Notes: generated by a model not told the origin, from the sequence alone. Positions 8,922 through 43,043 are shown, counted from the stretch's first letter. The stretch is 64,000 nt of DNA from Methanomassiliicoccus luminyensis B10 (GCF_000308215.1 NZ_CAJE01000012.1:504894-568893), one strand, 5' to 3'. Numbers and translations are program-made.

Positions 8922-9037
8922 GCAGGCGTTATTTCAGGCCTGAAGGTATATGAACGTGCCCGGAGCAGGCCGGGGACATGATGAAAATCAAAGAAGGGTG
9001 GAGCGAAGCTCCAGTTGGGTGTGGTCCGACGGAACGT

Positions 9038-9211
9038 TCAGTCCATCGAGATGGCGGAATTGGGGCACTCGTCAACGCAAGCGCCGCAGTCAACGCAGTC
9101 CTTCTCGTTGATGACCGCGATGTCGTTCTCGATCTTGATGGCCGACTGGGGGCAAACGTCCTCGCAGGCTCCGCATCCAACGCACTCTTCGTTCTTTACT
9201 TTCACTGCCAA
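9038..9211 (-). CDS. 2x[4Fe-4S] ferredoxin
   Basis: Two CxxCxxCxxxCP motifs (CVGCGACEDVCP and CVDCGACVDECP). The likely TTG/GTG start lies just after a GAGGTG RBS; the ORF was trimmed from 9038-9289. Confidence 0.75.
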   Translation of the reverse strand: MAVKVKNEECVGCGACEDVCPQSAIKIENDIAVINEKDCVDCGACVDECPNSAISMD

Positions 9212-9327
9212 ACTGAACACCTCGATTGTGGAAGTGCGAAACGAATGTTTGTATAAAAATCCTTTCACTGCGGCATCTACGTCCATCAATCAAAATAAAG
9301 AAAGAAAAGAGGTGAGGCGGGGGCGCC

Positions 9328-10746
9328 TCAAGAGAAGATATTGTACCTGAATTCGTAGCCCTCGGTCCTCACCAGGTTCGGCAGCTCCCCCCGGCCTATG
9401 AGCTGGAAGGCGTGGCGGATGACGGCCTCATAGAACTCGCAGTAGGGGCTCTTTCCGAAGATGGTGCCATTCTCGCTGTACACCTCCCCGGGGCACGGCG
9501 CCCCGCAGATGTTGCGCAGGGCGCAGGTGCCACAGGTAGGGATGTTCTCCGCCCAGCGGGACCGGACCAGAGAGAGGGCGGGGGACCTGACGGCCCTCTC
9601 CACCCCTCCGGCCTGGAACACGCTCTCGGTCCTGAAGTCCGCCAGGCCGAGGAATTCGCTGCACGGGTAGATGGAGCCGTCAGAGGCTACCGAGACAAAG
9701 CACCGCCCCCCGCCGCAGGGAGTGATGTCGCACATCAGCCTCCGGCCCATGGGGGCGATGATCCCCAGGACCAGGTTAGAGAAGTCGGCGATGGTGATCC
9801 TCTGCCCGCCCTTGGTCCTCTCCACCGCCCTCTCTACCGCGGCCATGAACTGGGGGATCAGCAGCTCGTTGGCCGGCCTGATCTTCCTCGCCACCTCTTG
9901 CGTTCCCCTCACCGGGTTCATCAATACAGAGGGCACTTTCCTGTCGGCGAGGAAGTCGATCATCTGAGGCAGCGTGCCCACGTTCATCGAGCTGATGGTG
10001 CAGATGACGCTCATCGCCTTGTAGCCATCGAGGCGCTCGATCACGTGGACGGCCTTATCGTAGGTCCCCCCGCTCCCTCCGCGCAGCGGCCGGATGCGGT
10101 CGTTGACCTCCTTTATCGGAGAGTCAAGGGACACTCCGACCGACACTTTGTGGTCCATGAAGAAGTCGCAGGTACCGTCATCGAGGTGAAAGCCGTTGGT
10201 CTGGACCCCGAAGGCGAAGCGGTCGGAGTAGTCGAGAACCACCTGCTTCAGGACGTCCTTCACCAAGAGCGGCTCGCTGCCGTGGAAGATGATCACCGGG
10301 CGCTTGCCGTCGCGGTTGCGCATCACCGAGCCGGGATAGTTCTCGAAGAAGTCGTGGAGATTGTCCAGGGCCAGGGACACCTGGGCATAGGTCATGTGCG
10401 GCCCCGCCGCCCTGAGGTCGTCGGGGAGATAGCAGTACTTGCAGCTGGCGTTGCACATGCCGGTAGGATTGAAGTACACCGCGCTGAAGCGCTCCGATTC
10501 ACGGAACTCGCGAAGCTCCTTGCGCATGCTCTCGGCGTGCTCGCTGTACATAGGGAGGATCTCGTTCTGCAGGGACGAACTTAGGTCCCGGTCCTTGGAG
10601 ACCATCGCCCAGAACATGGTGTCGGGGTCCAACAGGGCGTACCATTGCCCTACATCTATGAGCTGGAGATGCGGCCCTTGGCCGGAGTTCAGCCCGAACG
10701 GGATCACAGAGCTTGCGCTGGGTTGGGGATTTTCTGACATCATCAA
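9328..10746 (-). CDS. radical SAM/SPASM-domain enzyme (peptide-maturase/anSME-like) with ~100-aa N-terminal extension
   Basis: CNASCKYC (Cx3Cx2C) radical SAM cluster motif. The C-terminal SPASM cysteines are present (CDITPCGGGRCF ... CSEF ... CGTCALRNICGAPCPGE). An AGGTG RBS lies upstream of the ATGATGATG start. Confidence 0.85.
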   Translation of the reverse strand: MMMSENPQPSASSVIPFGLNSGQGPHLQLIDVGQWYALLDPDTMFWAMVSKDRDLSSSLQNEILPMYSEHAESMRKELREFRESERFSAVYFNPTGMCNASCKYCYLPDDLRAAGPHMTYAQVSLALDNLHDFFENYPGSVMRNRDGKRPVIIFHGSEPLLVKDVLKQVVLDYSDRFAFGVQTNGFHLDDGTCDFFMDHKVSVGVSLDSPIKEVNDRIRPLRGGSGGTYDKAVHVIERLDGYKAMSVICTISSMNVGTLPQMIDFLADRKVPSVLMNPVRGTQEVARKIRPANELLIPQFMAAVERAVERTKGGQRITIADFSNLVLGIIAPMGRRLMCDITPCGGGRCFVSVASDGSIYPCSEFLGLADFRTESVFQAGGVERAVRSPALSLVRSRWAENIPTCGTCALRNICGAPCPGEVYSENGTIFGKSPYCEFYEAVIRHAFQLIGRGELPNLVRTEGYEFRYNIFS

Positions 10747-10784: not shown

Positions 10785-10880
10785 TTAGAAGGGCAGTTCG
10801 CCCGCACCGTCGTAGATGATGTAGTGCGAGAGCCCGTTTCCGTCCACCTTGCACTCCATCCTACACATCACAACGCTCAT
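10785..10880 (-). CDS. candidate 31-aa precursor peptide MSVVMCRMECKVDGNGLSHYIIYDGAGELPF
   Basis: Small ORF immediately upstream of the rSAM/SPASM gene on the same strand (38-nt gap). An AGGAG RBS sits 11 nt upstream of the ATG. A TATA box and palindrome lie upstream. It contains two Cys residues. Confidence 0.35.
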   Translation of the reverse strand: MSVVMCRMECKVDGNGLSHYIIYDGAGELPF

Positions 10881-10897: not shown

Positions 10898-10918
10898 AGT
10901 TGGATGATACATCCAACT
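10898..10918. promoter_or_regulatory. 21-bp perfect palindrome AGTTGGATGATACATCCAACT just downstream of a TATA box (minus-strand promoter of peptide/rSAM operon)
   Basis: Read directly from the sequence. A TTATATA element (plus 10945-10951) lies ~25 bp upstream on the minus strand. The same 15-bp core recurs at 59193-59211. Confidence 0.6.
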
Positions 10919-11077
10919 AACACGGAAACTAAAATCCCGACTATATAACCATTACTGCATGTAAATTACAGTTGGATGTATGCTCCAACCAATCTGGCCC
11001 ATTGGATTGTTTCCACTTTTTTCAAGGCGATGCCGCACATACATGTTTGAAATACTGGGGTCCCGTTTTTCTCCCCG

Positions 11078-12145
11078 ATGCAGTACGTTTCGGGGCAGCT
11101 GCTGACCGAGGAGGGCTTCGTCGAGGGGCACGTCGGCTTCGAGGATGGGGTCGTCGCCGAGGTGGGCAGGGGGAAGGCAAAGGACAGCGTGTCCGAGGGG
11201 CTCATCCTCCCCACGTTCGTGAATGCGCACACCCATATCGCCGACTACGTCGTGCCGGTGGACCCCTTGCTGTCCCTGGCCGAGGTGGTAGCGCCGCCCC
11301 ATAGCCTCAAGTACCGTGTGCTTGCTGCTACACCTGAATCGAAGCAGCGGGAGGCCATCGGCTACCTCTCGGAGCGCATGGCTAGGGGCGGGACCTCGGT
11401 GTTCTCGGACTTCCGCGAGGGCGGCATTGGCGGCGCGAGGCTGATGTCCTCGGCCGAGGGAGCGAGGGCGTTCGTCCTCGGAAAGCCCCAGGCCCCTCAT
11501 TTCGACCGCGAGGAGATCTCCGCCCTCCTGGATGTCGCTGAGGGCATCGGCCCGTCGGCCATCTCGGACTGGGACTACGAGGAGCTGCGGGAGCTGGCCT
11601 CGTTCGTCCGCTCCCGGGGGAAGGTGTTCGCCATCCACTGCTCTGAGAGGATCAGAGAGGACCTGGACAAGGTCCTGGACCTGAGGCCGTCGTACCTCGT
11701 CCACATGACCCAGGCCACCGACGCGGACCTGGAGAGATGCGCCCAGCTCGACGTTCCCGTGGTGGTGTGCCCGAGGTCCAACATGTTCTTCGGCATGGCC
11801 CCGCCCCTGGCCCGCATGGTCCGCCACGGCGTGACCGTAGCGCTCGGCACCGACAACGCCATGATATCCATGCCCGACCTATTCGTGGAGATGGAGTTCG
11901 CGGGGAGACTGCTCCGGCAGCAGGGCGAAAAGCGGCTGGACTGCGTAATTCGTATGGCGGCCAGTCATGGCAGAAAAATTATAAATCGTAGCCCACTAAT
12001 AGAGATTGACCCGGGCGCGCCATGCGACTTCATGGTGGTCCGGTCCCAGAACGGCGATCCCGTCACCGACCTTGTCCTGCGGACCGCAGGGGAACAGCCC
12101 CTCCTGGTATGCATGGGAGGTAGGACATGGAGAGGACCACAATGA
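11078..12145 (+). CDS. amidohydrolase-family metal-dependent hydrolase (chlorohydrolase/deaminase-like)
   Basis: N-terminal metal-binding HxH motif (FVNAHTHIADY) and later H/D residues. Length ~355 aa. Confidence 0.7.
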   Translation: MQYVSGQLLTEEGFVEGHVGFEDGVVAEVGRGKAKDSVSEGLILPTFVNAHTHIADYVVPVDPLLSLAEVVAPPHSLKYRVLAATPESKQREAIGYLSERMARGGTSVFSDFREGGIGGARLMSSAEGARAFVLGKPQAPHFDREEISALLDVAEGIGPSAISDWDYEELRELASFVRSRGKVFAIHCSERIREDLDKVLDLRPSYLVHMTQATDADLERCAQLDVPVVVCPRSNMFFGMAPPLARMVRHGVTVALGTDNAMISMPDLFVEMEFAGRLLRQQGEKRLDCVIRMAASHGRKIINRSPLIEIDPGAPCDFMVVRSQNGDPVTDLVLRTAGEQPLLVCMGGRTWRGPQ

Positions 12146-18287: not shown

Positions 18288-18782
18288 TCAGTGGTACCGG
18301 TCGTTTTTCAAAAAACGTTCCGATTCCGCCCGGAACAGCTCATGATATTTTCGGCTGCATTCCATTAGGGTTCTGCGCTCAACATGGTTCATTTTCTGGA
18401 AAGCTAACTGCTCCGCCTCAAAAACCATGTCGATATTTTCCTGAGCGAATTTAACGCCCTTCTCGGTGAGAATGACATATTTTCCGCGCCTATCGATTTC
18501 CGACGGTTCCAAAGTGATATAGCCTCTCTTTTCCAGTCCCTTCAGCGCGGAGTTGATGGTCTGCTTGGTTATGGCCCATTGATCGCAGATCTCCTTTTGA
18601 GTACGTTTCCCATCCTCTTCTCGAATCGAACACATCAGCCAGAAGGCACTGATCGACAGACCGCTCTGTTTGGCAAATTCACCATATATCGCATCGCCTT
18701 CCTTGAAAAGAGAAATGAGTTCTCTCAGTTGTCGATGTGCCTCCTCGCGGTCCGAAGCATTGCCTAATTGGTCCGATTTCAT
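18288..18782 (-). CDS. MarR-family transcriptional regulator
   Basis: Winged-HTH region (QKEICDQWAITKQTINSALKGLEKRGYITLEPSEIDRRGKYVILTEKG). The internal ATG at 18780-18782 is taken as the start. Adjacent to the MATE transporter. Confidence 0.75.
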   Translation of the reverse strand: MKSDQLGNASDREEAHRQLRELISLFKEGDAIYGEFAKQSGLSISAFWLMCSIREEDGKRTQKEICDQWAITKQTINSALKGLEKRGYITLEPSEIDRRGKYVILTEKGVKFAQENIDMVFEAEQLAFQKMNHVERRTLMECSRKYHELFRAESERFLKNDRYH

Positions 18783-19240
18783 ACTAAATAGGGCATACTG
18801 AACATTCCATATATAAGCTGCGGTCAAGACATTTCATGGGCACATACCAAGCCCAGTAGAAGGAGGGCATTCCCAGGAATCGGTGTGATAAGCACCTCTC
18901 GGCTACCTTTTCGTTGGTATGCTGGGGAACAACAGACCTCAATCTATCATGAAATATTCGTATGTGCCCCCTGTGCGGCGGAGCACTAGACATTATTATT
19001 TTATTTAATATTATATGAATGAATATATCTGAATCAATTTATCTTTAACTTTCCGTGACGGGTCAAAAGTAAGTAGCAATCCTGCGGGCCGGATCATAGC
19101 CCCCTGCCCTCACTCATCAGCCAGAATGTGGCAACAGATAAAAAAAATAGAAGTTATGGCCAGTGGCGGTCTTTTTAGACCACACTAATCGAATGAAAAG
19201 ATGCGGTTAAGACTATGGTTGGTGGTCGATGTTCGTCATC

Positions 19241-19999: not shown

Positions 20000-20728
20000 A
20001 TGAAGGACACAGATATCCAAAAGCAGCTGGACATCATGCACGAGGAGATCAGGAATGTGAATGCTTTCCTCTCCCGCCTCAGACCAGAAGACATCAGAAC
20101 GGTGTTCGGAGATCAGACGAAACCTATCCTGATGGAATGGATAGAAAGATTTTTCCAGCAAAGAGCACAGAAGGTAGGGAAAACTAAAGAAGATACATGT
20201 CTCAAGGCTCGACTAATCGAGGCTGTGGAGGGTACTGACCGGGCAGTGCGGGGGGAAGGCCGAGACGAGGCCAAGATGATCCTCAATCAACTCGAGGGGG
20301 ACTTTGTATCGCCATCCTCAGCGAACGACCCCGACCGCCGAAGGTTTGTGCTCGATCTCATCAGGCAGGCCAGATGGTACATCGAAGAATCCGACAGAAT
20401 GATATGGATAGCGGGTGAGCAAAGAGGGCCCGCCATAACCGACACGGGACCGCTGTCCCCGGGCACGGTGGAGGAGACCCTGGTGCCTCTGGCGAATTCC
20501 CTAAGGCTCCGGATAATGTTGATACTGTCGAAGGAGGAAGAGCGTCTGGTGGACCTATGCAGGGCGATGGAGATGCAGAAAGGGCACATCCAGTACCACC
20601 TGAAGACCCTAATGGGGCGTGGGTACATCAGGTATGACCGCAAAAGCAGACTATACTCCCTTACCGGCCGGGGCACAGTGGCCCTGGACGGGCTAGCTAA
20701 GCTGACCGATGATATTCTTTCGGCGTAA
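20000..20728 (+). CDS. ArsR-family winged-helix transcriptional regulator with ~150-aa N-terminal uncharacterised domain
   Basis: C-terminal HTH (LANSLRLRIMLILSKEEERLVDLCRAMEMQKGHIQYHLKTLMGRGYI). Confidence 0.6.
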   Translation: MKDTDIQKQLDIMHEEIRNVNAFLSRLRPEDIRTVFGDQTKPILMEWIERFFQQRAQKVGKTKEDTCLKARLIEAVEGTDRAVRGEGRDEAKMILNQLEGDFVSPSSANDPDRRRFVLDLIRQARWYIEESDRMIWIAGEQRGPAITDTGPLSPGTVEETLVPLANSLRLRIMLILSKEEERLVDLCRAMEMQKGHIQYHLKTLMGRGYIRYDRKSRLYSLTGRGTVALDGLAKLTDDILSA

Positions 20729-20893
20729 GAGCTTGATGTGAGGCAAAAGAGCTCTTGCCCTCCCAGTGTAATAAAAAAATATTACGGTTGAATCTATAAT
20801 TATTACTTATGCGCTAGGGAGAGGCATGTCTGACGGCTGCGGAAGATACGCAGAAAAGAATTCAGGCTAGACAAGTAGCCGTGAGGGCGTCCG

Positions 20894-23089
20894 ATGGGCC
20901 ATGTACACAACACGAAGATAGCGATATACGGCAAGGGCGGCATCGGCAAGTCCACTGTCAGCGCTAACCTGTCCGCTACTCTCGCTAATGACGACAAGAA
21001 AGTCCTCCAGATAGGGTGCGATCCAAAGCACGATTCTACTCGCATGCTTCTTGGTGGAGCGTCCGTTCCCACGGTCCTTGACTATATTAAAGAGATACCG
21101 GCGAGCAGCAGGAAGCTGGATGATATCCTGCGCTGCGGCTATGGAGGGACGAGGTGCGTGGAGGCAGGAGGCCCGCAGCCCGGCGTAGGATGCGCTGGCC
21201 GCGGCATACTCAGCACGTTCGAGACGCTCGCCGAGCTCGGCATCGACGATATTGAATTCAACATCACCATCTACGACGTCCTCGGCGACGTGGTGTGCGG
21301 GGGCTTCGCCGTCCCCCTGAGAAAAGAGTACGCCGACATCGTGCTCATTGTGACATCAGGCGAATACATGTCGCTGTACGCGGCCAACAACATCTTGCGC
21401 GGGGTGGCCAGCTACGACGGCGCATCCTCTAGAGTGGGTGGCATCATATTCAACGGACGTGGCCTCGTTGATGAGGGGAGAATGGTGAGGACCTTTGCTC
21501 ATGAGGTCGGTCTTCCCGTTCTCACGTCGATACCACGCAGCAATGTGTTCGCGCAGGCCGAGGCCAAAGGGTGCACGGTAGTCGAAGGGTACCCGGACTC
21601 TGCTGAGGCGGCACTGTTCAAAGAACTGGCAATTCGCGTCGAATCGTTGGCTTCCGGCCTGAGCCCGTTGTACCATGCACGACCGCTGACCGACGAGACC
21701 ATGGAGAGGGTGTTGCTTGGCAGGTGCCATGAGACTTCCGCGTTACCATACGCCCATCCCTCATCAGCACAGCCCGTACCGGCTACCACGGGGATGGGAA
21801 CGACCAAACGCAAGAGGAGTCGCATCGATGCTGACAGAATAATACATGGATGCGCCTTTGCCGGCGCCGCAGCAATCACTACCCAGGTAAGGAATGCCGT
21901 CACTGTGGTGCATGGGCCGCTCAGCTGCGCCAACGTCGCCCTATACTATATCTCTTGCAACCTCACTCGGGACCCCCCTGACCGTCTCGAAAGAGTCAGA
22001 CCGCTGCAGCGGATAGTTTCCACCGCCATGGACGAGAGGTCCATGGTATTCGGCGGCACATCCGACCTCGAGTACGTGACAAAGAAGGCACTCGAGAAGG
22101 GCTACGAGGCTGCGTTCATAATCACTACCTGCCCCTCCGGCCTAATGGGCGAGGATATCTATCCGGTCGCTAAGAGGGTAGAGAGTTCGATGCCGGCAAA
22201 AAAAGTTGTAGTAGTCCCTGCTGGCGGGAACATCCATGGTAACTTCTCCAGTGGGATCACTCTTGCCCTTGTGTCCGCCGCCTCGCTGATCGACCCATCC
22301 GTACCAAAAGAACAGGGAACCGTTAACATCGTTGGCGAGAAAAACATGGTCGCCAACAGGGACCGCAACTACAAGGCGATTGTAGAGATGCTCTCGAAGC
22401 TTGATATTAAGGTGAACTGTAGGTACATCAGCGGCGCCTCGGTGCAAGACATTGTCGGCTTCCAGAAGGGAGAGGTGTGCCTCCCCGCTAACCACGACCT
22501 GGCCACCAGGGAGACCATCTCTTTTCTGTCCTCCCGAGCGCAAGTAGAGGATTTCCCCCTCCCATTCCCCCGGGGATTCCAGGAGACTTCGGTCTGGCTT
22601 ACCGCCCTGGGTGAGAGATTCGGGAAGGAGAGGGAAGCGACCTCGCTCATCTCGGCGTGCCGGGGGAAGTACGAGAGGGAGATCAGCGCGCTGTCACCAG
22701 GACTGAAAGAAAAGAAGGTCCTATTGGCCTCCGCTGACCCCCAAATCAATTGGATCGCTGACCTCATAAGGGATCTGGGAATGGTGATGCTGAAGGCAGG
22801 TATAGTCTCGACGGGGAAGGATATCCTATCCGCCTCCTCGCCCCACCATAGCTACCAGTTGAATTATTCACTAGAGCTTCTGGAAGAGGATATCAAGATG
22901 CTCCATCCAGACCTCGTGATAGTCCAACCTTACCCAGGAGTGGAGAGCCTGGGAACGAGGTTTGCATTGATCCCGTACAACCCTGACGTAGGCATCGATG
23001 CCGGGATATCGATGGCAAATGAGTGGTCGGTCCTGATGAGGGTACCTGCCGTCGAAGGATGGCGAAAGGGAGCAGGGGTCCGTCCATGA
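20894..23089 (+). CDS. nitrogenase-like fusion protein: NifH-like ATPase (N-terminal ~290 aa) fused to NifD/NifE/CfbD-like catalytic subunit (C-terminal ~430 aa)
   Basis: N-terminus has the Walker A motif (IYGKGGIGKST) plus CAGRG and VCGGF [4Fe-4S] ligand motifs. After a basic linker (TTKRKRSRID), the C-terminus carries HGPLSCA, YISCN and ITTCPSG nitrogenase-component-1-type motifs. A single uninterrupted 731-aa ORF. Confidence 0.8.
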   Translation: MGHVHNTKIAIYGKGGIGKSTVSANLSATLANDDKKVLQIGCDPKHDSTRMLLGGASVPTVLDYIKEIPASSRKLDDILRCGYGGTRCVEAGGPQPGVGCAGRGILSTFETLAELGIDDIEFNITIYDVLGDVVCGGFAVPLRKEYADIVLIVTSGEYMSLYAANNILRGVASYDGASSRVGGIIFNGRGLVDEGRMVRTFAHEVGLPVLTSIPRSNVFAQAEAKGCTVVEGYPDSAEAALFKELAIRVESLASGLSPLYHARPLTDETMERVLLGRCHETSALPYAHPSSAQPVPATTGMGTTKRKRSRIDADRIIHGCAFAGAAAITTQVRNAVTVVHGPLSCANVALYYISCNLTRDPPDRLERVRPLQRIVSTAMDERSMVFGGTSDLEYVTKKALEKGYEAAFIITTCPSGLMGEDIYPVAKRVESSMPAKKVVVVPAGGNIHGNFSSGITLALVSAASLIDPSVPKEQGTVNIVGEKNMVANRDRNYKAIVEMLSKLDIKVNCRYISGASVQDIVGFQKGEVCLPANHDLATRETISFLSSRAQVEDFPLPFPRGFQETSVWLTALGERFGKEREATSLISACRGKYEREISALSPGLKEKKVLLASADPQINWIADLIRDLGMVMLKAGIVSTGKDILSASSPHHSYQLNYSLELLEEDIKMLHPDLVIVQPYPGVESLGTRFALIPYNPDVGIDAGISMANEWSVLMRVPAVEGWRKGAGVRP

Positions 23090-24378
23090 TAGGCATTGAC
23101 GGCTTCAGTGCCACCATACTCGCCGCCGAGGGCATCGCCGACGCCACCGTGCTGCTGAACGGACCGCTGGGCTGCAAGTACTATCAAGGTCGCTTCGCCG
23201 ATCGATGGTTCCCGAAAGATATTTTCCCAGGGAGATATGGGCATCTCTGCGATCTCAGCTACTTCGGCCAACCGCGAGTGCCGTGCACCTTCCTCGACGA
23301 GGAAGATTACATTGACGGCGCACAAGAGAAGTTGGAAGTGGCTCTTCCCATCGTTGCGAAGAGGGCGAGCGGACCGATCATAATTGTGAACTCCCCAGGG
23401 GCTGCGCTTATCGGGGACGATATCGGTCGATCCGTCCGGGAACTCGGCCTCACGGACCGTGCGATCATCATCGAGAGCCCCGCCTTCTCTGCGCCGGCGT
23501 CGCAAGGCTTCGAGGAAACGATGATGCGCGTCGTGGAGGCGTTGGTGCCAAAGAGGGCACCAGCGCCCGACAGGTCAGTGAACCTCCTTGGCCTATCGAT
23601 AATGCACAAGCATTGGCAGGGGACGGTTCTCGAACTGAAGCGCGTCCTTGGACTTATGGGCCTCGATGTAAAAGCGGTGCCGGGGGCGGGCTCCTCCACG
23701 GACGAGCTTCGTTCATCGGTCGACGCGTCGCTCAACATAGTGCTGTGCCCGGAGTACGGTGCGAAGCTGGCGCGATACTATAAGGAGGAGCACGGGACGT
23801 CTTACCTGGTACCGTCGAAAGGAGCACCCCTGGGCTTCGATGCCACGGAATGCTTCATCCGCGAGGTGGCCTCAGCGATGAAAATGGATCCATCACCGGC
23901 GCTGCGCGATCTGCAGGCGTCGATGAATCGAGCGGCCCAAGTCCTGGCGCGATGCGCCTCCAGATTAAATTCGGTTAAAGGATCGACGTTCGCTCTCCGC
24001 GCCGACAGTTCTATCGCCTATCCGCTCACAGAGTGGCTCTACTCATACATGGGGATGTGGCCAGAGGCCGTCGAGCTGCTACCGCGCTCAGACCCCCTGT
24101 TCAGCGAGAAGCTCCGATCGTTCCTAGAGACTATCGGCGCGATTGATGCATTGATGAGGCCGGTGGAATCGACCCCTGCCGACACGGTATTCGCAGAAGG
24201 AAGGCTGGTGGAACAGCTGAAGGAGGAGGGGCAATGCATCGCCGGAGTGGATATCGCCATGCCTGAAGGCGAGCATATCTGCTTCGCTCCGAGAACCCAT
24301 TGGGGATCGGTCGGACCGCTATACCTCCTGGAAGAGATGGTCAACGACCTGGTATGGGGGAGCGAAGACTCGGCGTAG
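23086..24378 (+). CDS. nitrogenase component 1-type oxidoreductase (NifK/NifN/BchB-like partner subunit)
   Basis: NGPLGC motif. ~430 aa. The start overlaps the stop of the fusion gene (ATGA), so the two are likely co-translated. Confidence 0.7.
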   Translation: MIGIDGFSATILAAEGIADATVLLNGPLGCKYYQGRFADRWFPKDIFPGRYGHLCDLSYFGQPRVPCTFLDEEDYIDGAQEKLEVALPIVAKRASGPIIIVNSPGAALIGDDIGRSVRELGLTDRAIIIESPAFSAPASQGFEETMMRVVEALVPKRAPAPDRSVNLLGLSIMHKHWQGTVLELKRVLGLMGLDVKAVPGAGSSTDELRSSVDASLNIVLCPEYGAKLARYYKEEHGTSYLVPSKGAPLGFDATECFIREVASAMKMDPSPALRDLQASMNRAAQVLARCASRLNSVKGSTFALRADSSIAYPLTEWLYSYMGMWPEAVELLPRSDPLFSEKLRSFLETIGAIDALMRPVESTPADTVFAEGRLVEQLKEEGQCIAGVDIAMPEGEHICFAPRTHWGSVGPLYLLEEMVNDLVWGSEDSA

Positions 24379-26849: not shown

Positions 26850-27626
26850 TTGATCCAACACAGCATGAAGACCGCCAAGAAGGGGAAAAGAACGGTCGAG
26901 ATGTTCGCCACTCCCGGCGGGATCAAGACCGTGGACAGCCAGGTCAGGATGGGCATCCTGTCGATGTTGCTTGAGAAGGAGATGAGCTTCGACGAGATAG
27001 TAGCCTCCTCGGGGAAGGTCAAGTCCACAGTGTCAGTTCACCTGAAAGGCCTAACCGATGAAGGGATCATCGGGTCGAGGCCGGACCCCCGCGATGCAAG
27101 GAAGAAGATATTTTACATAAAGTCCAGTTATTTGGGCGGCCTCTCCCAGAGAAGGAAAGTGGACAAGGACATGGAGGAATACATCTCCAACTTCACTTGG
27201 GGGTCCGGGGACCCGTTCAAGTTCTTCCGCCTCGTGTTCCGGACGTTCCGGGTCTCCCTGCTCAACGAGGGCATTGATATCGACCCCGTGCTGCATGACG
27301 CGGGCATGAGGGTGGGGGAGGCACTGTACCAAAAGGTAGGGGACCAGGACATCGATGTGCTGCTTAGCAATCTGGCAGCGTTCTGGGGCGAGCAAAAGCT
27401 GGGGCGGCTGGAGGTCGAGAGCGTCGAACCGCTGGCCATCCGCATCTATGATTGCTACGAGTGCCAGGACCTGCCGCAGTTGGGAAGGCCTGCCTGCGCC
27501 TTCGATTCTGGCATCCTGGGGAAGGTCTTTTCCATGCATTTCGGCGCCGAGATGAAGGCGATAGAGACCCACTGCTACGCCATGGGGGACGACCACTGCC
27601 GCTTCGAGGTAAAGCTTCAGGATTGA
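26850..27626 (+). CDS. winged-helix (ArsR/TrmB-like) transcriptional regulator with C-terminal V4R (4-vinyl reductase) domain
   Basis: N-terminal wHTH (MGILSMLLEKEMSFDEIVASSGKVKSTVSVHLKGL). C-terminal Cys pattern typical of V4R domains (CYECQDLPQLGRPACAF ... HCYAMGDDHCRFEV). Divergent from fprA. Confidence 0.65.
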   Translation: MIQHSMKTAKKGKRTVEMFATPGGIKTVDSQVRMGILSMLLEKEMSFDEIVASSGKVKSTVSVHLKGLTDEGIIGSRPDPRDARKKIFYIKSSYLGGLSQRRKVDKDMEEYISNFTWGSGDPFKFFRLVFRTFRVSLLNEGIDIDPVLHDAGMRVGEALYQKVGDQDIDVLLSNLAAFWGEQKLGRLEVESVEPLAIRIYDCYECQDLPQLGRPACAFDSGILGKVFSMHFGAEMKAIETHCYAMGDDHCRFEVKLQD

Positions 27627-33061: not shown

Positions 33062-33818
33062 AACCCATTTTCTTTCTTATTTCTTTTTTGACCAGATAGC
33101 AAGGTTATTCTGGACAGGTGCCACTTCATAGAGAGTGTCCGCGACTGCTACACCGCGGGATGCGTGAAACCGCAGAAGTCAGTCGTCAGCCGCACCATGC
33201 TCAAGAAGACCTCAGGATCATATCCGTCCTCGAACGCCTCCCAAAGGCAGTTATGGGGCGCGAATCGTACCAGCCGATGACCTATTCCACTTTTCTTCTT
33301 TTTTTATCGAGGGGAGATTACGGAGCATCACTATATCCTGCGCGACCCTAGTCGCAGGGAGGTAACAATGCGGCATCAGGCATCCTCAGCCCGTTCCAGG
33401 TGAAGAATGTCAGCTTCGCCAACAGGGGGTCACGTCACCTATGGTGCGATTCGTGATCCCAGGCAAGGGTGACATAACGGGCGAAAAAATGATGGGTAGT
33501 TGCCTGGAAAGGCTGGCCAGGACATGCTGACAGAATATGAGCTGCCCGGAACGGGGACTCATTCATCCAAGTAGCGAGGATATGTTAGAAGACCAGCCTC
33601 GACGGCATCGATTCCCATGGGGCCACATAACTTCTTCCTGAACATGATAGCCTCCGCGCACCCCAATAAGCGAAGGGACCGTTACGGCGGCGACCTGAAA
33701 GGGAGGCTGACCCTGGCCAGATATAATGCAAAGCTAAAAAAATTCGGTTTCGATGAGACTCTTATCGAATCGCTGACATCTTTGTAATATATAAATAACA
33801 ACAATAAGGTTCTGGATT

Positions 33819-35498
33819 ATGGATTTCGATAGGAAGATATACTTTGGAGATTACAGGTGTACGAATCTCAAGAAGTTGGCAGCATACATCGAGGAGCTGA
33901 ACGAAACAATCGAGCCGTTGTTCGATGCGCACCCTTTATTTAAGGGAGAGTACGCACTCGATTACTACGAATATTTGAGTAGATGTGAGTTGAACAGCGA
34001 ACCTATCGAACCCAAAAAGGTGTTCGAGTACATCGCTCCACTATACTCGAATCTTCCAGATTGGCGCAATCCGGGAACCATGATTAATGTTATCCCAGCC
34101 GTTAATCTAGTTTCAGCGGCCACATCTAGTGTCACTCAGATGTTCAATCCGAATTTTGCTCAGGACACGTATTCCGGAAACCTCACACTTGCCGAACTCG
34201 AGTCTGTCAAGTATCTTTCGCAGATAATCGGATGGGACTGGGAGAAGAGTTGCGGTGTGTTCACTTTCGGAGGCACGGGAACTAACATGTACGCCACGAA
34301 GCTTGCATTATGTAACGCCGATGCAGAGTCTGGAAAGTACGGGGCAGTCAAGGGAAGGTACTTCACGCTTACCAGCAAGAATGGTCATCCAACTCATTAC
34401 CAGATCTGTGACTGGCTTGGGATCGGGAGCGACAGCTGCATCGAGATTGAATGCAATCCCGACGGAAGGATTAATGTTTCCGAAGTGAAAAGGGTCATCC
34501 GCGAGAACATCGAGGTTGGGAGGACATTTCTCGGCTACAATATGACTGGCGGAAGTACCAACGAGCTTATCGTGGATCCGATTAAGGAGATCTATGACCT
34601 CAATGACGAGATAGTGAAAGATTACGACCTGCCGTACAAGCCCATGATCCATGTGGATTCGGTGTTGGGTTGGATATTCTTGTTTTTCAGATATTACGAC
34701 TTCGAAAAGAATCCTAATGATTATCCAGATGATGTCTTGAAACGGATTAAGTCCATGTACGACCATGTTTTCGAGTTTAAATATGCCGATACATTGGGCG
34801 TTGATTTCCATAAGACTGGTTTCTGCCCATATATCACCAGTGCGTTTGTGGTGAAGGACCGGTCCAAATTCTTTAATCTCAACCCGTCCACTTCGATCGA
34901 TTTAAAGGATATGAAGTATGGGGATTACAATCCATTCTACACATCGTTGGAGTACTCCAGAACGGGTGTCGGACCTATGGCTGCACTTACGTGTCTAAAG
35001 TCGCTAGGCACCAATTCATTCTGTAAATTGGTGGGCGATCTTGTTTTGGCGACACACATTTTCAGGAAGAGATTGAAGGACAACCCGCATGTGTTCATGC
35101 TCAGTGATGGGTCGGAAGGATTTGCTACACTGTTCCTTCTCGTTCCACCTAGGTACGGAAAACTGACATATAGTACGGTCTTTAGTCTTACTGATGGGCA
35201 GACCAAGGAAATCAAGGATTACAATACCAGGTATGGGAAGTTCGTCCTTCGCGAATGTATAGAAAGAAAAACTAATTTCTTATTCACATCTTCCAGAAGC
35301 TATACGTTGCCTGGGACTGATATAAAGATAGGCGCCATCAAGGCATATCCATTTTCGATATTCCTTACAGAAGAGAATGCCGAGGTATTGGCCAAAGAGG
35401 TTGGTGAAAGCATCCAGAGATTTACAGACCAAGATGGCGATCAGGCATGCACTAGAGACGAGTATTTTGTGGACATGACAACTGCGGGCAAGAAGTGA
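33819..35498 (+). CDS. PLP-dependent group II amino-acid decarboxylase-like protein (559 aa)
   Basis: Conserved decarboxylase lysine context (LGVDFHKTGFCPY) and an upstream GTGTNMYA region. Confidence 0.65.
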   Translation: MDFDRKIYFGDYRCTNLKKLAAYIEELNETIEPLFDAHPLFKGEYALDYYEYLSRCELNSEPIEPKKVFEYIAPLYSNLPDWRNPGTMINVIPAVNLVSAATSSVTQMFNPNFAQDTYSGNLTLAELESVKYLSQIIGWDWEKSCGVFTFGGTGTNMYATKLALCNADAESGKYGAVKGRYFTLTSKNGHPTHYQICDWLGIGSDSCIEIECNPDGRINVSEVKRVIRENIEVGRTFLGYNMTGGSTNELIVDPIKEIYDLNDEIVKDYDLPYKPMIHVDSVLGWIFLFFRYYDFEKNPNDYPDDVLKRIKSMYDHVFEFKYADTLGVDFHKTGFCPYITSAFVVKDRSKFFNLNPSTSIDLKDMKYGDYNPFYTSLEYSRTGVGPMAALTCLKSLGTNSFCKLVGDLVLATHIFRKRLKDNPHVFMLSDGSEGFATLFLLVPPRYGKLTYSTVFSLTDGQTKEIKDYNTRYGKFVLRECIERKTNFLFTSSRSYTLPGTDIKIGAIKAYPFSIFLTEENAEVLAKEVGESIQRFTDQDGDQACTRDEYFVDMTTAGKK

Positions 35499-36343
35499 AT
35501 AATGTGAAGAACGATGCTTTGATGAATAATTTGTCCGAAGAGATACAGCGCCTGAAAGATTACTTGTTGAACGATTTGTTTTCATTGAAAATCACGTGTA
35601 TCACTGCATTCGGCAACTGTGTCCGTAACGCGACCACAGTGCCGAATTATTCGGACGTGGACATCGTAGCTTATTCGGATATGGTGAGCTATGAGAACAT
35701 AGACCTGATACTGAGGACGATTTACGGATCATACAAAGATTTCTGTGATAAACCGCCGAGGTTTATCACAGACTCCATAGCTCCTCGCATAGAATGGTTT
35801 ATGCGGATTAATGATGTCAAATTTGATCTCAATCTCATGCCCACCTATCTCCCCGGATATGAAAGGATGATGGTCGATCCAGTCCATGATACGGTCGATA
35901 TAATTATTGGAGCGATGTATCTGAATGCAATAACGCTCCATGGGGAGATACCATTCAGGCAGCTCGTCGAATCGGAGATGATTCCATTTTATAATGATGA
36001 GCTGAGGCTTAACAGGATGAAGATACTGGGGGGGAGGATTGATGAACAATTGAGCATAATCGAAGGCATTCAGGACGGTGATGGCGAGAATGTGTTGTAT
36101 TACACATTCAAAACCCAGGCATATGTGACAAAATGGATTTTCATCGCTTGTCGTAAGTACCCTCTCGATGCCCAAAGGCATCTCGGAACGCAGCTCGCAG
36201 GACTGGAATGTATGTCTTCGGAGGAGATTGAGAGCATTATGTTGAAGAACGGTGAGAATATAAAGGCGATTGTTTGGAATTTCATCAAAGGAACGAGAGA
36301 AGTCATGATTAGGTTAGGCAGACCCTCAGAGGTCGAAGAATGA
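35495..36343 (+). CDS. putative nucleotidyltransferase (Pol-beta-like NTase fold)
   Basis: GN/GS-x(9-13)-DxD-like motif (FGNCVRNATTVPNYSDVDIVAY). Translationally coupled to neighbours (4-nt overlaps). Confidence 0.45.
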   Translation: MNNVKNDALMNNLSEEIQRLKDYLLNDLFSLKITCITAFGNCVRNATTVPNYSDVDIVAYSDMVSYENIDLILRTIYGSYKDFCDKPPRFITDSIAPRIEWFMRINDVKFDLNLMPTYLPGYERMMVDPVHDTVDIIIGAMYLNAITLHGEIPFRQLVESEMIPFYNDELRLNRMKILGGRIDEQLSIIEGIQDGDGENVLYYTFKTQAYVTKWIFIACRKYPLDAQRHLGTQLAGLECMSSEEIESIMLKNGENIKAIVWNFIKGTREVMIRLGRPSEVEE

Positions 36344-37218
36344 TTGTAGAGCATGAATATGACGGAAAAAAGGTATTCATACTAGCTTGTTCCAGTTGCA
36401 ATGTTGTTTGCAAACATTGCTACATCAATTTTAAAGGTGATATGGGCCTAGAGAAACTTGTAACGACCATATACGCTCTCAAAGATAGATATGTGCTCAA
36501 TATCACTGGAGCGGAACTGCTGATTGATTCTGAATACGTTCGGAGAATAACTGAATCCAATCAGAAAGGGTTTATGACTAACGGTCTCGCTCTTTATAAG
36601 AACGTCAATCTGTTGGATAAACTCTTAGAATGGGGCGTGAAATACGTGGCCCTTTCATACCACCATATGGTTCAGGAAGAGTATTCACCCATTCCAAAAT
36701 ACAAGGTGGAATGGGTGATTAAGGAATTGATAACAAGAAGAATAGACGTGAGCCTTATGTCCACAGTGACGAAGGTAAACTATGACAAGATTGACGATGC
36801 CTGCAGAATCGCAGAATCGCTCGGGGCCAAAAGGATACATTTCACCAATTTCACGGCGCAGGGCAATGCTCGTAAGATATCTGACATGTGGAAACTGAAT
36901 GATAAGGAGATTCAGGTATTTTTTGAGAGATATCGCGAATGTGTGGAGAACTATCCAAATCTCATTGTGGAGAAGTGTTGCAGTTTCGGTAAAGATGTTA
37001 ACGAGCCCTGTGCACAAGTATGTGCTGCTGGAAAGGACAAGGTCGCGATCACTCCTGATGGAAACGTATATCCCTGTTTCTTCCTTGCCGAAAAAGGAAA
37101 TGAGATCGGGCGTTTCGATAATGGCATTATAACCATCTTCCGTGAGATCGACTGGGATGGGACAGATTGTCTTTCGAAGCGTGTTCTCAACTACAACGGG
37201 GCGCTAAATTATAAATGA
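36340..37218 (+). CDS. radical SAM enzyme with C-terminal SPASM/twitch-like Cys-rich domain
   Basis: CSSCNVVCKHC contains Cx3Cx2C. A C-terminal CAQVCAAGKDKVAITPDGNVYPCFF motif is present. Confidence 0.8.
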   Translation: MIVEHEYDGKKVFILACSSCNVVCKHCYINFKGDMGLEKLVTTIYALKDRYVLNITGAELLIDSEYVRRITESNQKGFMTNGLALYKNVNLLDKLLEWGVKYVALSYHHMVQEEYSPIPKYKVEWVIKELITRRIDVSLMSTVTKVNYDKIDDACRIAESLGAKRIHFTNFTAQGNARKISDMWKLNDKEIQVFFERYRECVENYPNLIVEKCCSFGKDVNEPCAQVCAAGKDKVAITPDGNVYPCFFLAEKGNEIGRFDNGIITIFREIDWDGTDCLSKRVLNYNGALNYK

Positions 37219-37432
37219 ATGTTGTCTGAGCGGTTTCATGCGCCCGTTTCACATGGATGAGAATCCTTCTTGACGCAATTGGTAGCGATGGGATATCAGG
37301 ATACGACTCACCAGTCACGGGGTCCAAGGTGGCGCGATATTTGCCTGATTTAATCCGAGATATTATATGGCAATAGATGGTGATGCCTCTTAGCAAACCT
37401 TTTTTCATTATCTATCATTCTGGAGTTAGGGA

Positions 37433-38212
37433 ATGAGAAGAATCGCTATCTATGGCAAGGGCGGCATAGGGAAGTCTACGACAGCATCCAATATTTCCTC
37501 GGCATTATCTGAAGTTGGATTGAAAGTGATGCAGATTGGGTGTGACCCCAAAGCTGATTCAACCCGAATATTGACGCATGGAAAAATACCGACGGTACTC
37601 GATGCTCTCTACAGCAAAGGTCATCCTGAACTGAAAGACATAATATTCGAAGGAGACAATGGAATCCTTTGTGTGGAATGCGGTGGGCCGCGTCCTGGAG
37701 AAGGATGCGCTGGCAGGGGGATAATCGCCGCGTTCGAGAAGATCGAGGAGCTTAAAGCTGTTGAGGCATACAAACCAGACGTAATATTGTACGATGTCCT
37801 CGGTGATGTGGTCTGTGGCGGCTTTGTCATGCCGATACGTAATGGGTATGCAAAGGATGTGTTTGTGATATCCTCGGGCGAGATGATGTCGCTTTATGCT
37901 GCATCAAATATAATCAGTGCCGTCAATACCATGTCGTACATGGGCTATGCCAAATTCGGAGGCATCATTCAGAATTCACGCGGCATCGTGAATGAGGATG
38001 CGATTGTGAATAAGGTTGCCGTGGAGATGGGGGCCGATGTAATCTATAGGCTCCCTAGGAGTCCAGTGGTCCAATCCTGCGAGAATGCTGATAATTCTGT
38101 CGTTTTTGGTGCACCGCAATCATACATGGCTTCGGCATACAGAGAATTATCTAAAGTTATCTTGAAACGCACCGAAGATATTGCTGGAAAAATGAAACTT
38201 TGTATTCAATAA
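37433..38212 (+). CDS. NifH-like ATPase/Fe protein homolog (CfbC/BchL/NifH family)
   Basis: Walker A (IYGKGGIGKSTT), switch regions, and both [4Fe-4S] Cys ligand motifs (CAGRG, VCGGF). 259 aa. Confidence 0.85.
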   Translation: MRRIAIYGKGGIGKSTTASNISSALSEVGLKVMQIGCDPKADSTRILTHGKIPTVLDALYSKGHPELKDIIFEGDNGILCVECGGPRPGEGCAGRGIIAAFEKIEELKAVEAYKPDVILYDVLGDVVCGGFVMPIRNGYAKDVFVISSGEMMSLYAASNIISAVNTMSYMGYAKFGGIIQNSRGIVNEDAIVNKVAVEMGADVIYRLPRSPVVQSCENADNSVVFGAPQSYMASAYRELSKVILKRTEDIAGKMKLCIQ

Positions 38213-39132
38213 TGTCCGATGGTAAGATGGTTCCCGTGGAAGACAGAAACCCCAGGATATATGCAAAATGTGCGATTGCAATGCCGTTCTTGGCTAGTAG
38301 ACACACACAAGCTTTGGAGCTGTGCATGAAGTCGATTCTGAGATACGGTCCCGAATCCATGGACATATTCATATCTGTGGATGCTAAAGGGTCTGTATCT
38401 GACATATTTCCGAAGGAAAGAATCCAGTCCATCAGCGATAGGATAAATATCATCCCTCTTGATGATAAAAATTACAAGCAGGCGTTGCTAAATTACATGG
38501 CATCGCTGGATTATGACTACACATATGTAATCCATAGTGATGTTTTCTTTACGGGAAATAAGGCCTTAAATAAGCTTTTGAAAGCATTGGTAGATAAGTC
38601 GGATGCTGTGTTGAGTTACTATGATGTTCCGTTATGCATACATGAAAGTACCTATCATATGAGCGGGGAGTCCAAACGTAAATACGTGTTGTCTCCGCGC
38701 GTCAGTACATGGATTATGTGTTTCAATGTTGGAAATTACAGAAAGATAAAGAAGAAATACGGTATGAAGATTGATTTTGTCCGTGTATGGATGAATCTTA
38801 ATGACGATTACTTCGAAGAATACAATCAGTGGATGAGGAGCCAGAAAGAATTTGATTTGATATATAGCTCCTTTCCGTTCGATGAGTATATGGTGGATAT
38901 CGGCGGACTCATTAAATACCAGATAGACACGGGGAACGTAAATGGAGTGTCCGTTGGTTCGGAGTCTAATCCGGATTTCAACTCCATGAATCTGAACAAA
39001 AGGTCCGACGAGTATGTCCATATTGAACAATTTGATCCATCGCGTTACAATGATAGATTGTATTCCAAGGGTTTGTTAGATACGAGGGCCAATCAGATAA
39101 AAGATTACATGAAGAGAAACTACCCGGAGTGA
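38200..39132 (+). CDS. hypothetical protein (possible GT-A-like fold), island-specific
   Basis: 310-aa ORF between the NifH-like and NifD-like genes, AT-rich codon usage, no motif confidently recognised. Confidence 0.4.
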   Translation: MYSIMSDGKMVPVEDRNPRIYAKCAIAMPFLASRHTQALELCMKSILRYGPESMDIFISVDAKGSVSDIFPKERIQSISDRINIIPLDDKNYKQALLNYMASLDYDYTYVIHSDVFFTGNKALNKLLKALVDKSDAVLSYYDVPLCIHESTYHMSGESKRKYVLSPRVSTWIMCFNVGNYRKIKKKYGMKIDFVRVWMNLNDDYFEEYNQWMRSQKEFDLIYSSFPFDEYMVDIGGLIKYQIDTGNVNGVSVGSESNPDFNSMNLNKRSDEYVHIEQFDPSRYNDRLYSKGLLDTRANQIKDYMKRNYPE

Positions 39133-39136
39133 GTTA

Positions 39137-40381
39137 ATGTACTGCGAGCCATTCAAATCATGTTACTTATTCGGTTCGCTTAGAATCGTGTCGAATTTCA
39201 AGAATTGTGTTTATCTGATCAATGGACCTTCAGGATGTGCCTTTTTCTGTAGGAACTCTGTTTTGTTGCTCAATGGATACACACATATGCCTTATTCAGT
39301 GAATCTGCCAAGGATATTTACCACCAATCTGACTGATAAGGATGTGGTGTTCGGTTCCACAGATAGATTGGAAGAGGATGTGCTGGAGATCGATGTCAAA
39401 TACAATCCAGATGCCATATTTATTTTCAATTGTTGTGTTTCTGAGATTATCGGCATGTATATTGAAGATTTGGAGAAGAAACTAGAAAAAATAACGAAGG
39501 CTAAGATTATTGCTGTTCCAAGCGCCGGCTTTAAAGGGGATCATAAGATAGGCATGAAGGTTGCGAATAAAAAAATCTTCGAAAAGGTCGTTAAGCGCCC
39601 CACTATGAAGGTTCCGTATTCGGTCAATATACTTGGCGATGCGGATAGATTTGGGCACACGACGAAAGAACTCAGGTCATTCCTAGATGAAAACAACATC
39701 AGCATCATCACCAGTATCCCCGGAGATGTGGATATGAAAAGTGTCTCGGAATCATCCGAGGCGTCCTTGAATATCATCGTTTGCGGTACTGCGGGATATG
39801 GTATGGCCAAACTTTACTTAGAGGAATATGGCGTCCCGTTCGTGGGAGGTCAATCGTCGGTATTCGGAATTAATCACACGTTCGAACTTTACAAAGCAAT
39901 ACTCGACCACTTCGGTAAGTCCTTGGATGACCTGGAACAAAGAAGACAGACTGCATTTGATAACATCAGAAGATTCAGAACAGAATTGTCAGATAAGAAA
40001 GCATTCATCATCGCGGGTGCACGCAGATCCTTTGGATATGCCGCTCTTTTGAAAGAGCTTGGGATGTCGGTGGAATACATATTCACGGAATCTAATGATT
40101 GTGTTCTGAGGGAAGAAGATGCCCTGAGAATGATATCTAAACAAATAATATATGATGAATGGGATGAAGAGTTACGTAACCGTATAAGAATGAAAAGGCC
40201 GGATCTGGTTCTCTCCACGCTGCCGGAGTTGATCATTCCTGAAAAATACGTCTCCAGGACACTAGATGATTTTGCTGGATTCTCCGGTGCAGAGAGATTT
40301 GCCCAGTATATCTACGATACGATAATATTGCAAAAAATGGAAGAAGTAGTATTCATCCGGGCCAAGGATGACAATCTCTGA
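39137..40381 (+). CDS. nitrogenase component 1-type oxidoreductase (NifD/NifE/CfbD/BchN-like)
   Basis: INGPSGCAFFC and FNCCVSE Cys motifs in a ~410-aa alpha/beta Rossmann-like repeat architecture. Confidence 0.8.
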   Translation: MYCEPFKSCYLFGSLRIVSNFKNCVYLINGPSGCAFFCRNSVLLLNGYTHMPYSVNLPRIFTTNLTDKDVVFGSTDRLEEDVLEIDVKYNPDAIFIFNCCVSEIIGMYIEDLEKKLEKITKAKIIAVPSAGFKGDHKIGMKVANKKIFEKVVKRPTMKVPYSVNILGDADRFGHTTKELRSFLDENNISIITSIPGDVDMKSVSESSEASLNIIVCGTAGYGMAKLYLEEYGVPFVGGQSSVFGINHTFELYKAILDHFGKSLDDLEQRRQTAFDNIRRFRTELSDKKAFIIAGARRSFGYAALLKELGMSVEYIFTESNDCVLREEDALRMISKQIIYDEWDEELRNRIRMKRPDLVLSTLPELIIPEKYVSRTLDDFAGFSGAERFAQYIYDTIILQKMEEVVFIRAKDDNL

Positions 40382-40396
40382 CTAGCATCGTTCAAT

Positions 40397-41038: not shown

Positions 41039-41063
41039 ATCCAAAAATATATTTGGCGCATAG

Positions 41064-42791: not shown

Positions 42792-43043
42792 TTGAGGAGC
42801 AGTCATAGCAATGCCATTCGGGTTTGTAATACTGTTCTATCATTATTCAGGCAGATATGCCCGATCGGATATGCCAGGGCCAGTTATGCAATTCGCTAAA
42901 GGCAACTGGGAATCATCTTTAACATGCCATCAAATTCATATACACTGAAGAAAAGGAGAGTTAGCGACCCGTGGACGTATGCTAAGGGACAGAGTCCCTG
43001 CCTAGCAGAATCACATACTTGGGATCGCGGATGGCTTGAGCCC

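Follow-up and report, generated by a model that had tools for sequence, protein, structure and literature searches.

A 21-bp inverted repeat shared by the cbpA and cbiA promoters of Methanomassiliicoccus luminyensis and its probable role as the operator of a cobamide/cobalt regulon

The two loci and their shared element

The stretch of 64,000 nucleotides of the Methanomassiliicoccus luminyensis B10 genome analysed here (NZ_CAJE01000012.1:504894-568893; "the window" denotes this stretch at its full length) contains two gene groups that carry the same short symmetric DNA element at their promoters. The first is a radical S-adenosylmethionine (SAM) peptide operon composed of cbpA and cbpB (the "cobopep" genes) and a ferredoxin gene, with an amidohydrolase-superfamily gene diverging from it; the second consists of cbiA, cobQ and a stand-alone paralog of the ATPase half of CobQ. 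The element occurs as operators O1 and O2 in the intergenic region common to cbpA and the amidohydrolase gene and as operator O3 ahead of cbiA (Table 1). We infer from its promoter positions, its conservation and the genes that follow it that the three boxes are very probably operators of a vitamin B12 (cobamide)/cobalt regulon of the Methanomassiliicoccales, where a repressor protein and a small effector would act.

The 15-mer TGGATGATACATCCA is found exactly at both 10901-10915 and 59195-59209, as a preliminary description of this DNA had claimed in pointing out two repeats with an identical core. The O1 sequence AGTTGGATGATACATCCAACT and the 19-bp GCTGGATGATACATCCAGC within the O3 region (59193-59211) are perfect inverted repeats with arms of 9 bp and 8 bp, respectively, around an ATA centre that is not self-complementary, and the term "perfect palindrome" that had been applied to them is therefore incorrect. 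The earlier two-site picture was also incomplete, having missed O2, which lies 72 bp from O1, centre to centre. The flanks of O3 differ symmetrically, with T changed to C at position 3 and A to G at position 19. About 10 nt past O2 there is a half-site that reaches no score as a full site and may be the remnant of a third one; its ATCCAAY column is kept in most orthologous regions. Among relatives, the consensus is an 8-5-8 inverted repeat, AGTTGGAT-N5-ATCCAACT, with an A/T-rich centre, or, with the centre in detail, the 21-bp AGTTGGAT-(G/T/A)WWW(C/A/T)-ATCCAACT. The symmetric consensus was derived from 107 distinct sites. Inverted repeats of this kind, with arms of 8-9 bp and a centre of 3-5 nt, fit recognition by a dimeric DNA-binding protein.

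The mere repetition of a 15-mer is nothing unusual in the window (44 cases, versus ~6 in Markov-1 random sequence), and the argument that two copies of a 15-mer could hardly arise by chance was to this extent overstated. What does set the element apart is that TGGATGATACATCCA is the sole repeated 15-mer with 6-bp inverted-repeat arms, of which none was obtained in 30 randomisations. Matches with at most three mismatches number seven, compared with 1.97 expected, and a count of seven was reached in 0 of 100 shuffles. When a position weight matrix (PWM) built from orthologous sites was applied, exactly three positions in the 64 kb were selected (38.1, 22.7 and 12.6, the next best being 6.9), all of them intergenic and all in promoters. 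The three-mismatch matches at 3125 and 27890 and a weak PWM hit at 30897 were treated as chance; TGGAGCGAAGCTCCA at 8999-9013 matches only a loose form of the pattern and is a terminator-like hairpin, not an operator.

Table 1. Operators, promoter elements and genes of the two loci; positions are counted from the first nucleotide of the window
Feature	Position	Strand	Remarks
Operator O1 (proximal), AGTTGGATGATACATCCAACT	10898-10918	.	PWM scores 36.9 and 38.1; intergenic
Operator O2 (distal), AGTTGGATGTATGCTCCAACC	10970-10990	.	imperfect copy; PWM scores 25.0 and 22.7
Operator O3, AGCTGGATGATACATCCAGCG	59192-59212	.	core 59195-59209; PWM scores 16.8 and 12.6
Half-site ATTGGAT (ATCCAAT in cbpA orientation)	11001-11007	.	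~10 nt past O2
Shared TATA box, TATATAA (+) / TTATATA (-)	10942-10948	.	23 nt from O1, 21 nt from O2
TATA box of the cbiA promoter, TTATTTATA	59181-59189	+	abuts O3 as TTATTTATA-cc-AGCTGG…
cbpA, 31-residue precursor peptide MSVVMCRMECKVDGNGLSHYIIYDGAGELPF	10785-10880	-	TIGR04164 cobo_pep, E 1.3e-6
cbpB, radical SAM/SPASM peptide-modifying enzyme	9328-10746	-	TIGR04163 rSAM_cobopep and PF04055
2x[4Fe-4S] ferredoxin, last gene of the cbpAB operon	9038-9289	-	Pfam Fer4; syntenic in relatives
Terminator-like hairpin TGGAGCTTCGCTCCA, then T-rich tail	8999-9013	-	end of operon
Amidohydrolase-superfamily gene (chlorohydrolase/deaminase-like)	11078-12145	+	PRK07213, 195.9 bits, below cut-off
cbiA (cobB), cobyrinic acid a,c-diamide synthase	59260-60612	+	TIGR00379, 490 bits
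cobQ, cobyric acid synthase with N-terminal Cys-rich PF04071 domain	60599-62419	+	profile matches
Stand-alone paralog of CobQ ATPase half, without GATase domain	62416-63264	+	profile matches

Position of the boxes at promoters

The intergenic region between cbpA and the amidohydrolase gene is built around one TATA box, TATATAA on one strand and TTATATA on the other, which by its distances from O1 and O2 could act for transcription in either direction; when orthologous cbpA regions are aligned, a TTATATA-like block stands out as conserved. In the sense of the minus strand O1 lies downstream of this TATA box and 17 nt 5' of the cbpA start codon, while O2 spans the point at which the divergent amidohydrolase transcript is predicted to begin. 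The region thus has the layout of a symmetric bidirectional promoter with one box for each divergent predicted start, and the amidohydrolase gene, whose membership in the regulon is deduced from this geometry, is probably controlled through O2. At the cbiA promoter, O3 begins 2-3 nt past the TATA box and 47 nt 5' of the ATG.

The gaps between TATA and box in the window (23, 21 and 2-3 nt) fall into the same two classes that recur over ~40 promoters. In the first class the TATA box is ~20-24 nt 5' of the box (cbpA, an ECF operon, many btuF promoters, cobT and a dehydrogenase gene); given the usual archaeal distance from TATA box to start, the box would here cover approximately positions +1 to +21 of the predicted transcript. 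In the second class the TATA box abuts the box (cbiA of the window, the cbi operon of relative L037, hemA, cbiK and the Nitrosopumilaceae promoters introduced below). Tandem boxes, 23-26 bp apart, are seen at btuF. The archaeal regulators MDR1, LrpA, Phr and NrpR block the recruitment of TFB or RNA polymerase from both of these box positions. Repression is the mechanism that we infer, because both arrangements are known positions of archaeal repressors. The preliminary description had placed the boxes immediately downstream of TATA elements, which is true of cbiA and does not hold for cbpA, where the gap is 23 nt and where the TATA box is at 10942-10948 rather than at ~10945-10951. Its more general view that the boxes occupy the classic position of an archaeal repressor agrees with their location on or just before the predicted transcription starts.

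Conservation at orthologous promoters

A genome scan for CbpB gave 30 loci (here designated by L numbers), including 15 Methanomassiliicoccales loci in which the cbpA promoter is present. All 15 carry the box between TTATATA and the ribosome-binding site of cbpA, with one or two copies per promoter, and in ~300 kb of Methanomassiliicoccales DNA around cbpB (loci of ~21 kb) high-scoring hits are nearly confined to the cbpA promoters. A second copy is located 70-73 bp upstream of O1 in L001-L007, L012, L013, L026 and L030; L008-L010, whose neighbouring gene is not an amidohydrolase, have this distal copy in a degenerate form. The proximal box is retained in L008-L011 and L013 despite different surrounding genes, and at the orthologous promoters generally the box is kept while its flanks diverge.

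The cbiA orthologs of four relatives (L037-L040) were compared in the same way, and the cbi, cbiM or cbiA promoter carries the box in all four. In these genomes, cbiA-cobQ forms the tail of a longer unit, and it is this unit that the box heads, which indicates the origin of O3 in the window. Boxes are found before cbiMNQO in L038 and L039, before the cbiT…cbiA operon and hemA in L037, before cbiA itself in L040, and before a DZR-Fer4-Fur operon in L038. The occurrence of the motif at orthologous promoters of both gene groups, which the preliminary description had proposed as a test of its operator idea, is therefore well documented. In L039 (15960-16010) two weaker boxes are found directly 5' of a gene for a fasciclin-domain protein that diverges from an ABC transporter gene, and these two genes may be extra members of the regulon.

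The regulon beyond the window

Metagenome contigs were scanned by pattern only, using AGTTGGATNNNNNATCCAACT with the three central positions left free, and this yielded 120 loci. Many of those with low G+C content (GC) are chance hits, as exemplified by L042, which is bacterial. At loci with a GC of at least 0.45, the central positions are A/T-only in 52 of 70 sites, as compared with the 8.8% expected (P ~6e-40). Among the high-GC loci the box is followed in 13 by a gene for a BtuF-like Peripla_BP_2 binding protein and in 5 by one for a Zn-dehydrogenase of the threonine-dehydrogenase type. Nine loci have an operon in which genes for a secreted PQQ-propeller/PKD protein and a DUF4430 protein are combined with those for a CbiQ-like T component, a double ATPase and an ECF S component. 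Archaeal cobT (TIGR00303, 379 bits), cbiK, thrB and cbpA with the amidohydrolase gene are also represented downstream of the box. In several genomes, then, the box stands 5' of genes for corrin biosynthesis, cobalt transport and corrinoid transport, which is the content that a B12 regulon would have. L084 (100-223) and L094 (241-414), on contigs with a GC of 0.43, have three box-like copies with a period of ~51 bp, in which AGTTGGAT-N5-ATCCAACT has centres that are not A/T-only; these copies may have nothing to do with the regulon and belong to an array of repeats.

One locus, L053, has a box at 2849-2869, which is 129 nt 5' of nrdD (anaerobic ribonucleotide reductase) and upstream of the likely TATA box. 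If real, it would parallel the bacterial control by B12 of B12-independent isozymes. It was considered as a hallmark of B12 sensing and set aside, being a single case of atypical geometry.

The peptide operon has its own connections to cobalt and B12. The family name "cobopep" links cbpAB to them, and in one ANME-1 and one Halobacteriota genome cbpB adjoins cbiMNQO and genes for corrin methyltransferases and cbiC (L015 1-6350; L025 1600-7900). The physical linkage between cbpB and cbi genes seen in these other lineages is replaced by the shared operator in the lineage of the window. A search of the window and of L037-L040 at the Rfam gathering thresholds found no cobalamin riboswitch and returned only a tRNA.

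A candidate regulator

When the open reading frames within 4 kb of the boxes were clustered in search of recurrent regulators, one DNA-binding protein recurred: a protein of 194 amino acids with an N-terminal winged helix, which matches Pfam CggR_N and PH0730-like_N, and a C-terminal DUF4443 domain. The clustering gave no other recurrent factor within 4 kb, except for a helix-turn-helix gene (HTH_3+CBS) that is found ~2 kb away beside metK at some loci. The order metK, DUF4443 gene, box, ECF operon is shared by six Methanomassiliicoccales loci (L072, L085, L126, L148, L162 and L163). The DUF4443 gene begins 3-6 nt after metK, the gene for the archaeal S-adenosylmethionine synthetase (L161-L163 4700-6585; L072; L126), with which it is presumably co-transcribed in the Methanomassiliicoccales.

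The same association reappears in a second phylum. Ten low-GC loci of the pattern scan have the identical sequence AGTTGGATGGTTTATCCAACT (one of them, L042, being the bacterial chance hit mentioned above), and in five of the ten the box comes directly after the TATA box TATTTAAAC and 50-100 nt 5' of a DUF4443 homolog. These five contigs belong to the Nitrosopumilaceae; their DUF4443 homologs are 29-37% identical, and the flanks vary around a constant box. The genes divergent from the DUF4443 gene at these five loci are CbtB- and CbtA-like, with weak NCBIfam matches below cut-off, and are proposed to encode a cobalt transporter. A motif, EGS(M/I/V)(R/K)T, which falls within what is predicted to be helix three of the winged-helix domain, is common to three lineages. 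That a single-copy gene such as that for DUF4443 should adjoin the same 21-bp box in two phyla by coincidence is very unlikely (by a rough estimate, <=1e-4). The search for an adjacent or co-occurring transcription factor, which the preliminary description had recommended, thus led to a gene beside the box at six Methanomassiliicoccales and five Nitrosopumilaceae loci, and with moderate confidence we regard the winged-helix + DUF4443 protein (PH0730 family), encoded outside the window, as the probable regulator of the box.

PH0730 itself, from Pyrococcus horikoshii (PDB 2P8T), has a DUF4443 domain and a CggR-like N-terminal domain and is a structural-genomics entry without assigned function. 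A literature search returned neither a function for DUF4443/PH0730 nor a characterised archaeal B12 regulator.

Proposed mechanism and effector

In the mechanism that we consider most consistent with these findings, a dimeric winged-helix repressor would recognise the 21-bp inverted repeat. In the cbpA region the two boxes that flank the single TATA box would allow it to block the start of cbpA-cbpB-ferredoxin and that of the amidohydrolase gene, respectively, and at cbiA-cobQ and the CobQ ATPase-half paralog the box would fill the space from TATA to start. The bound repressor would prevent the recruitment of TFB and RNA polymerase or the initiation of transcription, and a corrinoid, the end product of the pathway, would act as co-repressor. 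At those cbiMNQO operons that have a Fur-type regulator, this protein would contribute a metal signal of its own.

A corrinoid is favoured as co-repressor, on the coherence of the regulon and again with moderate confidence, and cobalt is the main alternative. The import of cobalt, the import of corrinoids and the synthesis of corrin are all under one type of box, and only feedback by the end product fits all three: with Co2+ as co-repressor, B12 synthesis would be off when cobalt is plentiful, and with Co2+ as inducer, cobalt uptake would be on when cobalt is plentiful. The preliminary description had suggested one dimeric regulator common to cbpAB and cbiA-cobQ, perhaps responsive to cobalamin or to sulfur or redox status. 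A common regulator of this kind accords with the conservation of the boxes, their promoter positions and the genes of the regulon. The cobalamin guess is borne out by the promoters that carry a box, which drive cobalt transport, corrin synthesis, cobT, cbiK, BtuF-like proteins and ECF/DUF4430 uptake systems, and nothing in the regulon points to sulfur or redox control.

Alternative explanations

A number of observations weigh against this interpretation or against parts of it. The cbiA site of the window has weaker flanks (PWM 12.6-16.8). The nrdD box of L053 is unlike all other sites in its geometry and is weak evidence for B12 as effector. As regards the candidate regulator, the metK-DUF4443 pair has no box of its own in the Methanomassiliicoccales, its adjacency to a box could be synteny specific to the clade, and L161, from the closest relative genome, lacks both the ECF operon and its box. 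In the Thermococcales the DUF4443 gene is a neighbour of pyrF, and its surroundings hold no box. The DUF4443 domain is unlike the known B12-binding folds, and no ligand-binding fold was recognised in it. Finally, a Fur-family gene (PF01475, E 1.2e-14) is part of the cbiMNQO operon or next to it in L037 and L038, with TTGGAT boxes in the same intergenic regions.

This last association raises the alternative that a Fur-family metalloregulator binds the box and that the regulon senses cobalt or nickel ions and not B12. The 6-5-6 geometry of TTGGAT-N5-ATCCAA also recalls the Nur box of Streptomyces (Fur family), tTGCaa-N5-ttGCAA; both are 6-5-6 inverted repeats, and Nur belongs to a metal-uptake regulon, but the sequences differ. 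In its full extent the box has an 8-5-8 form and contains G/C, and it does not look like a Fur box; the Fur genes occur at two loci only, no Fur homolog lies near the ~60 other loci with boxes, and there would be little physiological reason for a cell to repress corrin synthesis and corrinoid uptake in response to cobalt. Moreover, the Fur genes have a different palindrome of their own, TAGTAATCATTACTA, with a 7-1-7 structure like that of Fur boxes, at their promoter, and we consider it quite unlikely that Fur is the regulator of the 21-bp box. TAGTAATCATTACTA is located ~10 nt 5' of the Fur-family gene attached to cbiMNQO, and a related AGTAATG-N5-CATTACT is found just 5' of the TTGGAT box at cbiM (L037 2544-2558; L038 6227-6241 and 6677-6695); these palindromes suggest a separate metal-responsive input on cobalt uptake. 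Another helix-turn-helix protein could also be the regulator, namely the ArsR-type protein at 20000-20728, the ArsR+V4R protein at 26850-27626 or the HTH_3+CBS protein beside metK. A protein 34.5% identical to that at 20000-20728 is encoded at 8100-8840 of L011, 1 kb from cbpA, and V4R is predicted to be a small-molecule-binding domain. The adjacency to cbpA is nonetheless limited to the single locus L011, homologs are absent from the vicinity of the boxes in the 120 scan loci, and in the window no box stands at the promoter of any of them, so that this reading, too, is unlikely. The ArsR-type, ArsR+V4R and MarR (18288-18827) proteins of the window were rejected as candidates on the same grounds, having no promoter box and not recurring near boxes.

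It is also conceivable that the inverted repeat acts as RNA, in the form of a hairpin at the 5' end of the transcript that controls stability or translation. With a TATA box ~22 nt 5', the box would make up the first 21 nt of the mRNA, in which a stem of 8-9 bp is possible. At the promoters of the second class, however (cbiA, the cbi operon, hemA, cbiK and the Nitrosopumilaceae), the box is left mostly untranscribed, and across the 15 cbpA orthologs, L037-L040 and the two phyla the arms are essentially invariant, with no compensatory change, in a comparison that uses promoters found independently of the search pattern. Together with the lack of an Rfam match, this makes a role as RNA very improbable. 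The chance that the box is a random or dispersed repeat or a mobile element without regulatory role is practically negligible. The abundance of repeated 15-mers in the window could be cited in favour of such an origin, but no other inverted-repeat 15-mer recurs, every copy is intergenic and at a fixed promoter position, and the sites are conserved at orthologous positions throughout an order and again in another phylum. A mobile element would be expected in many copies regardless of gene boundaries, and the preliminary description had likewise reasoned that copies scattered through coding regions would indicate a repeat; the 64 kb contain three copies, each at a promoter.

Other genes of the window

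The identification of the cbp genes rests on profile matches of unequal strength. CbpB reaches 479.7 bits against TIGR04163 (cut-off 375), and CbpA, which adjoins it, 27.8 bits against TIGR04164, below the cut-off of 35 bits. The CbpA peptide is 78-97% conserved in relatives, and CbpB is at most 81% identical to that of other species. The amidohydrolase gene is followed by USP and CBS genes, and this divergent synteny is conserved. The trio of cbiA, cobQ and the CobQ ATPase-half paralog is kept in L037-L039, and the cbiA region is intact in metagenome assemblies. Farther away, window 20000-24378 encodes the ArsR-type helix-turn-helix protein (242 residues), followed by a 731-residue NifH-NifD-like fusion and a second nitrogenase-component-1-like protein. 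An island at 33800-42800 has a GC of 0.41-0.45, versus ~0.60 elsewhere, and contains NifH-like, nitrogenase-component-1-like and radical-SAM-like open reading frames; it was probably acquired horizontally.

Relation to known systems and significance

Much of the biosphere's cobamide is made and used by archaea, including methanogens and the marine Nitrosopumilaceae. To our knowledge, archaea are without B12 riboswitches, and we know of no characterised transcription factor for archaeal B12 metabolism. The bacterial cobalamin riboswitch (RF00174) governs the same set of functions (cbi/cob, cbiMNQO, cbtAB, btuF-type and cobT genes) and likewise provides end-product feedback; there, B12 is sensed directly by the RNA leader, whereas the element described here is a symmetric DNA site at the promoter. 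A closer precedent is the "CBL-box", which Rodionov et al. in 2003 reportedly put forward as the DNA signal bound by a B12 regulator hypothesised for archaea. As reported, that proposal resembles ours in postulating a protein that acts on a DNA signal, not a riboswitch, at archaeal genes for cobalamin biosynthesis and transport. It predates the genomes of the Methanomassiliicoccales and Nitrosopumilaceae, and is reported to name no regulator and not to include cbpAB.

The operators of MDR1, LrpA, Phr, NrpR and the TrmB family are likewise palindromic and lie over the start or in TATA-proximal DNA, with a different motif, a different regulon and apparently a different protein family. In CarH and LitR (MerR family), DNA binding depends on bound cobalamin; these are bacterial light sensors with the canonical B12 domain PF02310, which the DUF4443 candidate, unlike them, does not have. 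In kind, therefore, the element is an ordinary promoter-proximal operator, and what appears to be new is the Methanomassiliicoccales regulon, its reach into the Nitrosopumilaceae, the inclusion of cbpAB and a candidate for the regulator.

As a wider proposal, which we offer tentatively as a possibility, winged-helix + DUF4443 proteins would be B12-responsive repressors of archaea that, by binding AGTTGGAT-N5-ATCCAACT, do the work of the riboswitch in two phyla or more (the Methanomassiliicoccales of the Thermoplasmatota, and the Nitrosopumilaceae), sensing a corrinoid by means of a domain unlike the known B12 folds; CbpA and CbpB would be a true component of cobalt/corrinoid handling, because they are co-repressed with the pathway. 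The analysis supplies a precise 21-bp operator, a regulon and a concrete candidate protein for which a crystal structure already exists. It ties the modified peptide of CbpA/CbpB to cobalt/B12 physiology by regulation, beyond gene neighbourhood, and marks the PQQ-propeller/PKD, DUF4430 and BtuF-like surface proteins as likely parts of the machinery by which methanogens of gut and wetland capture corrinoids.

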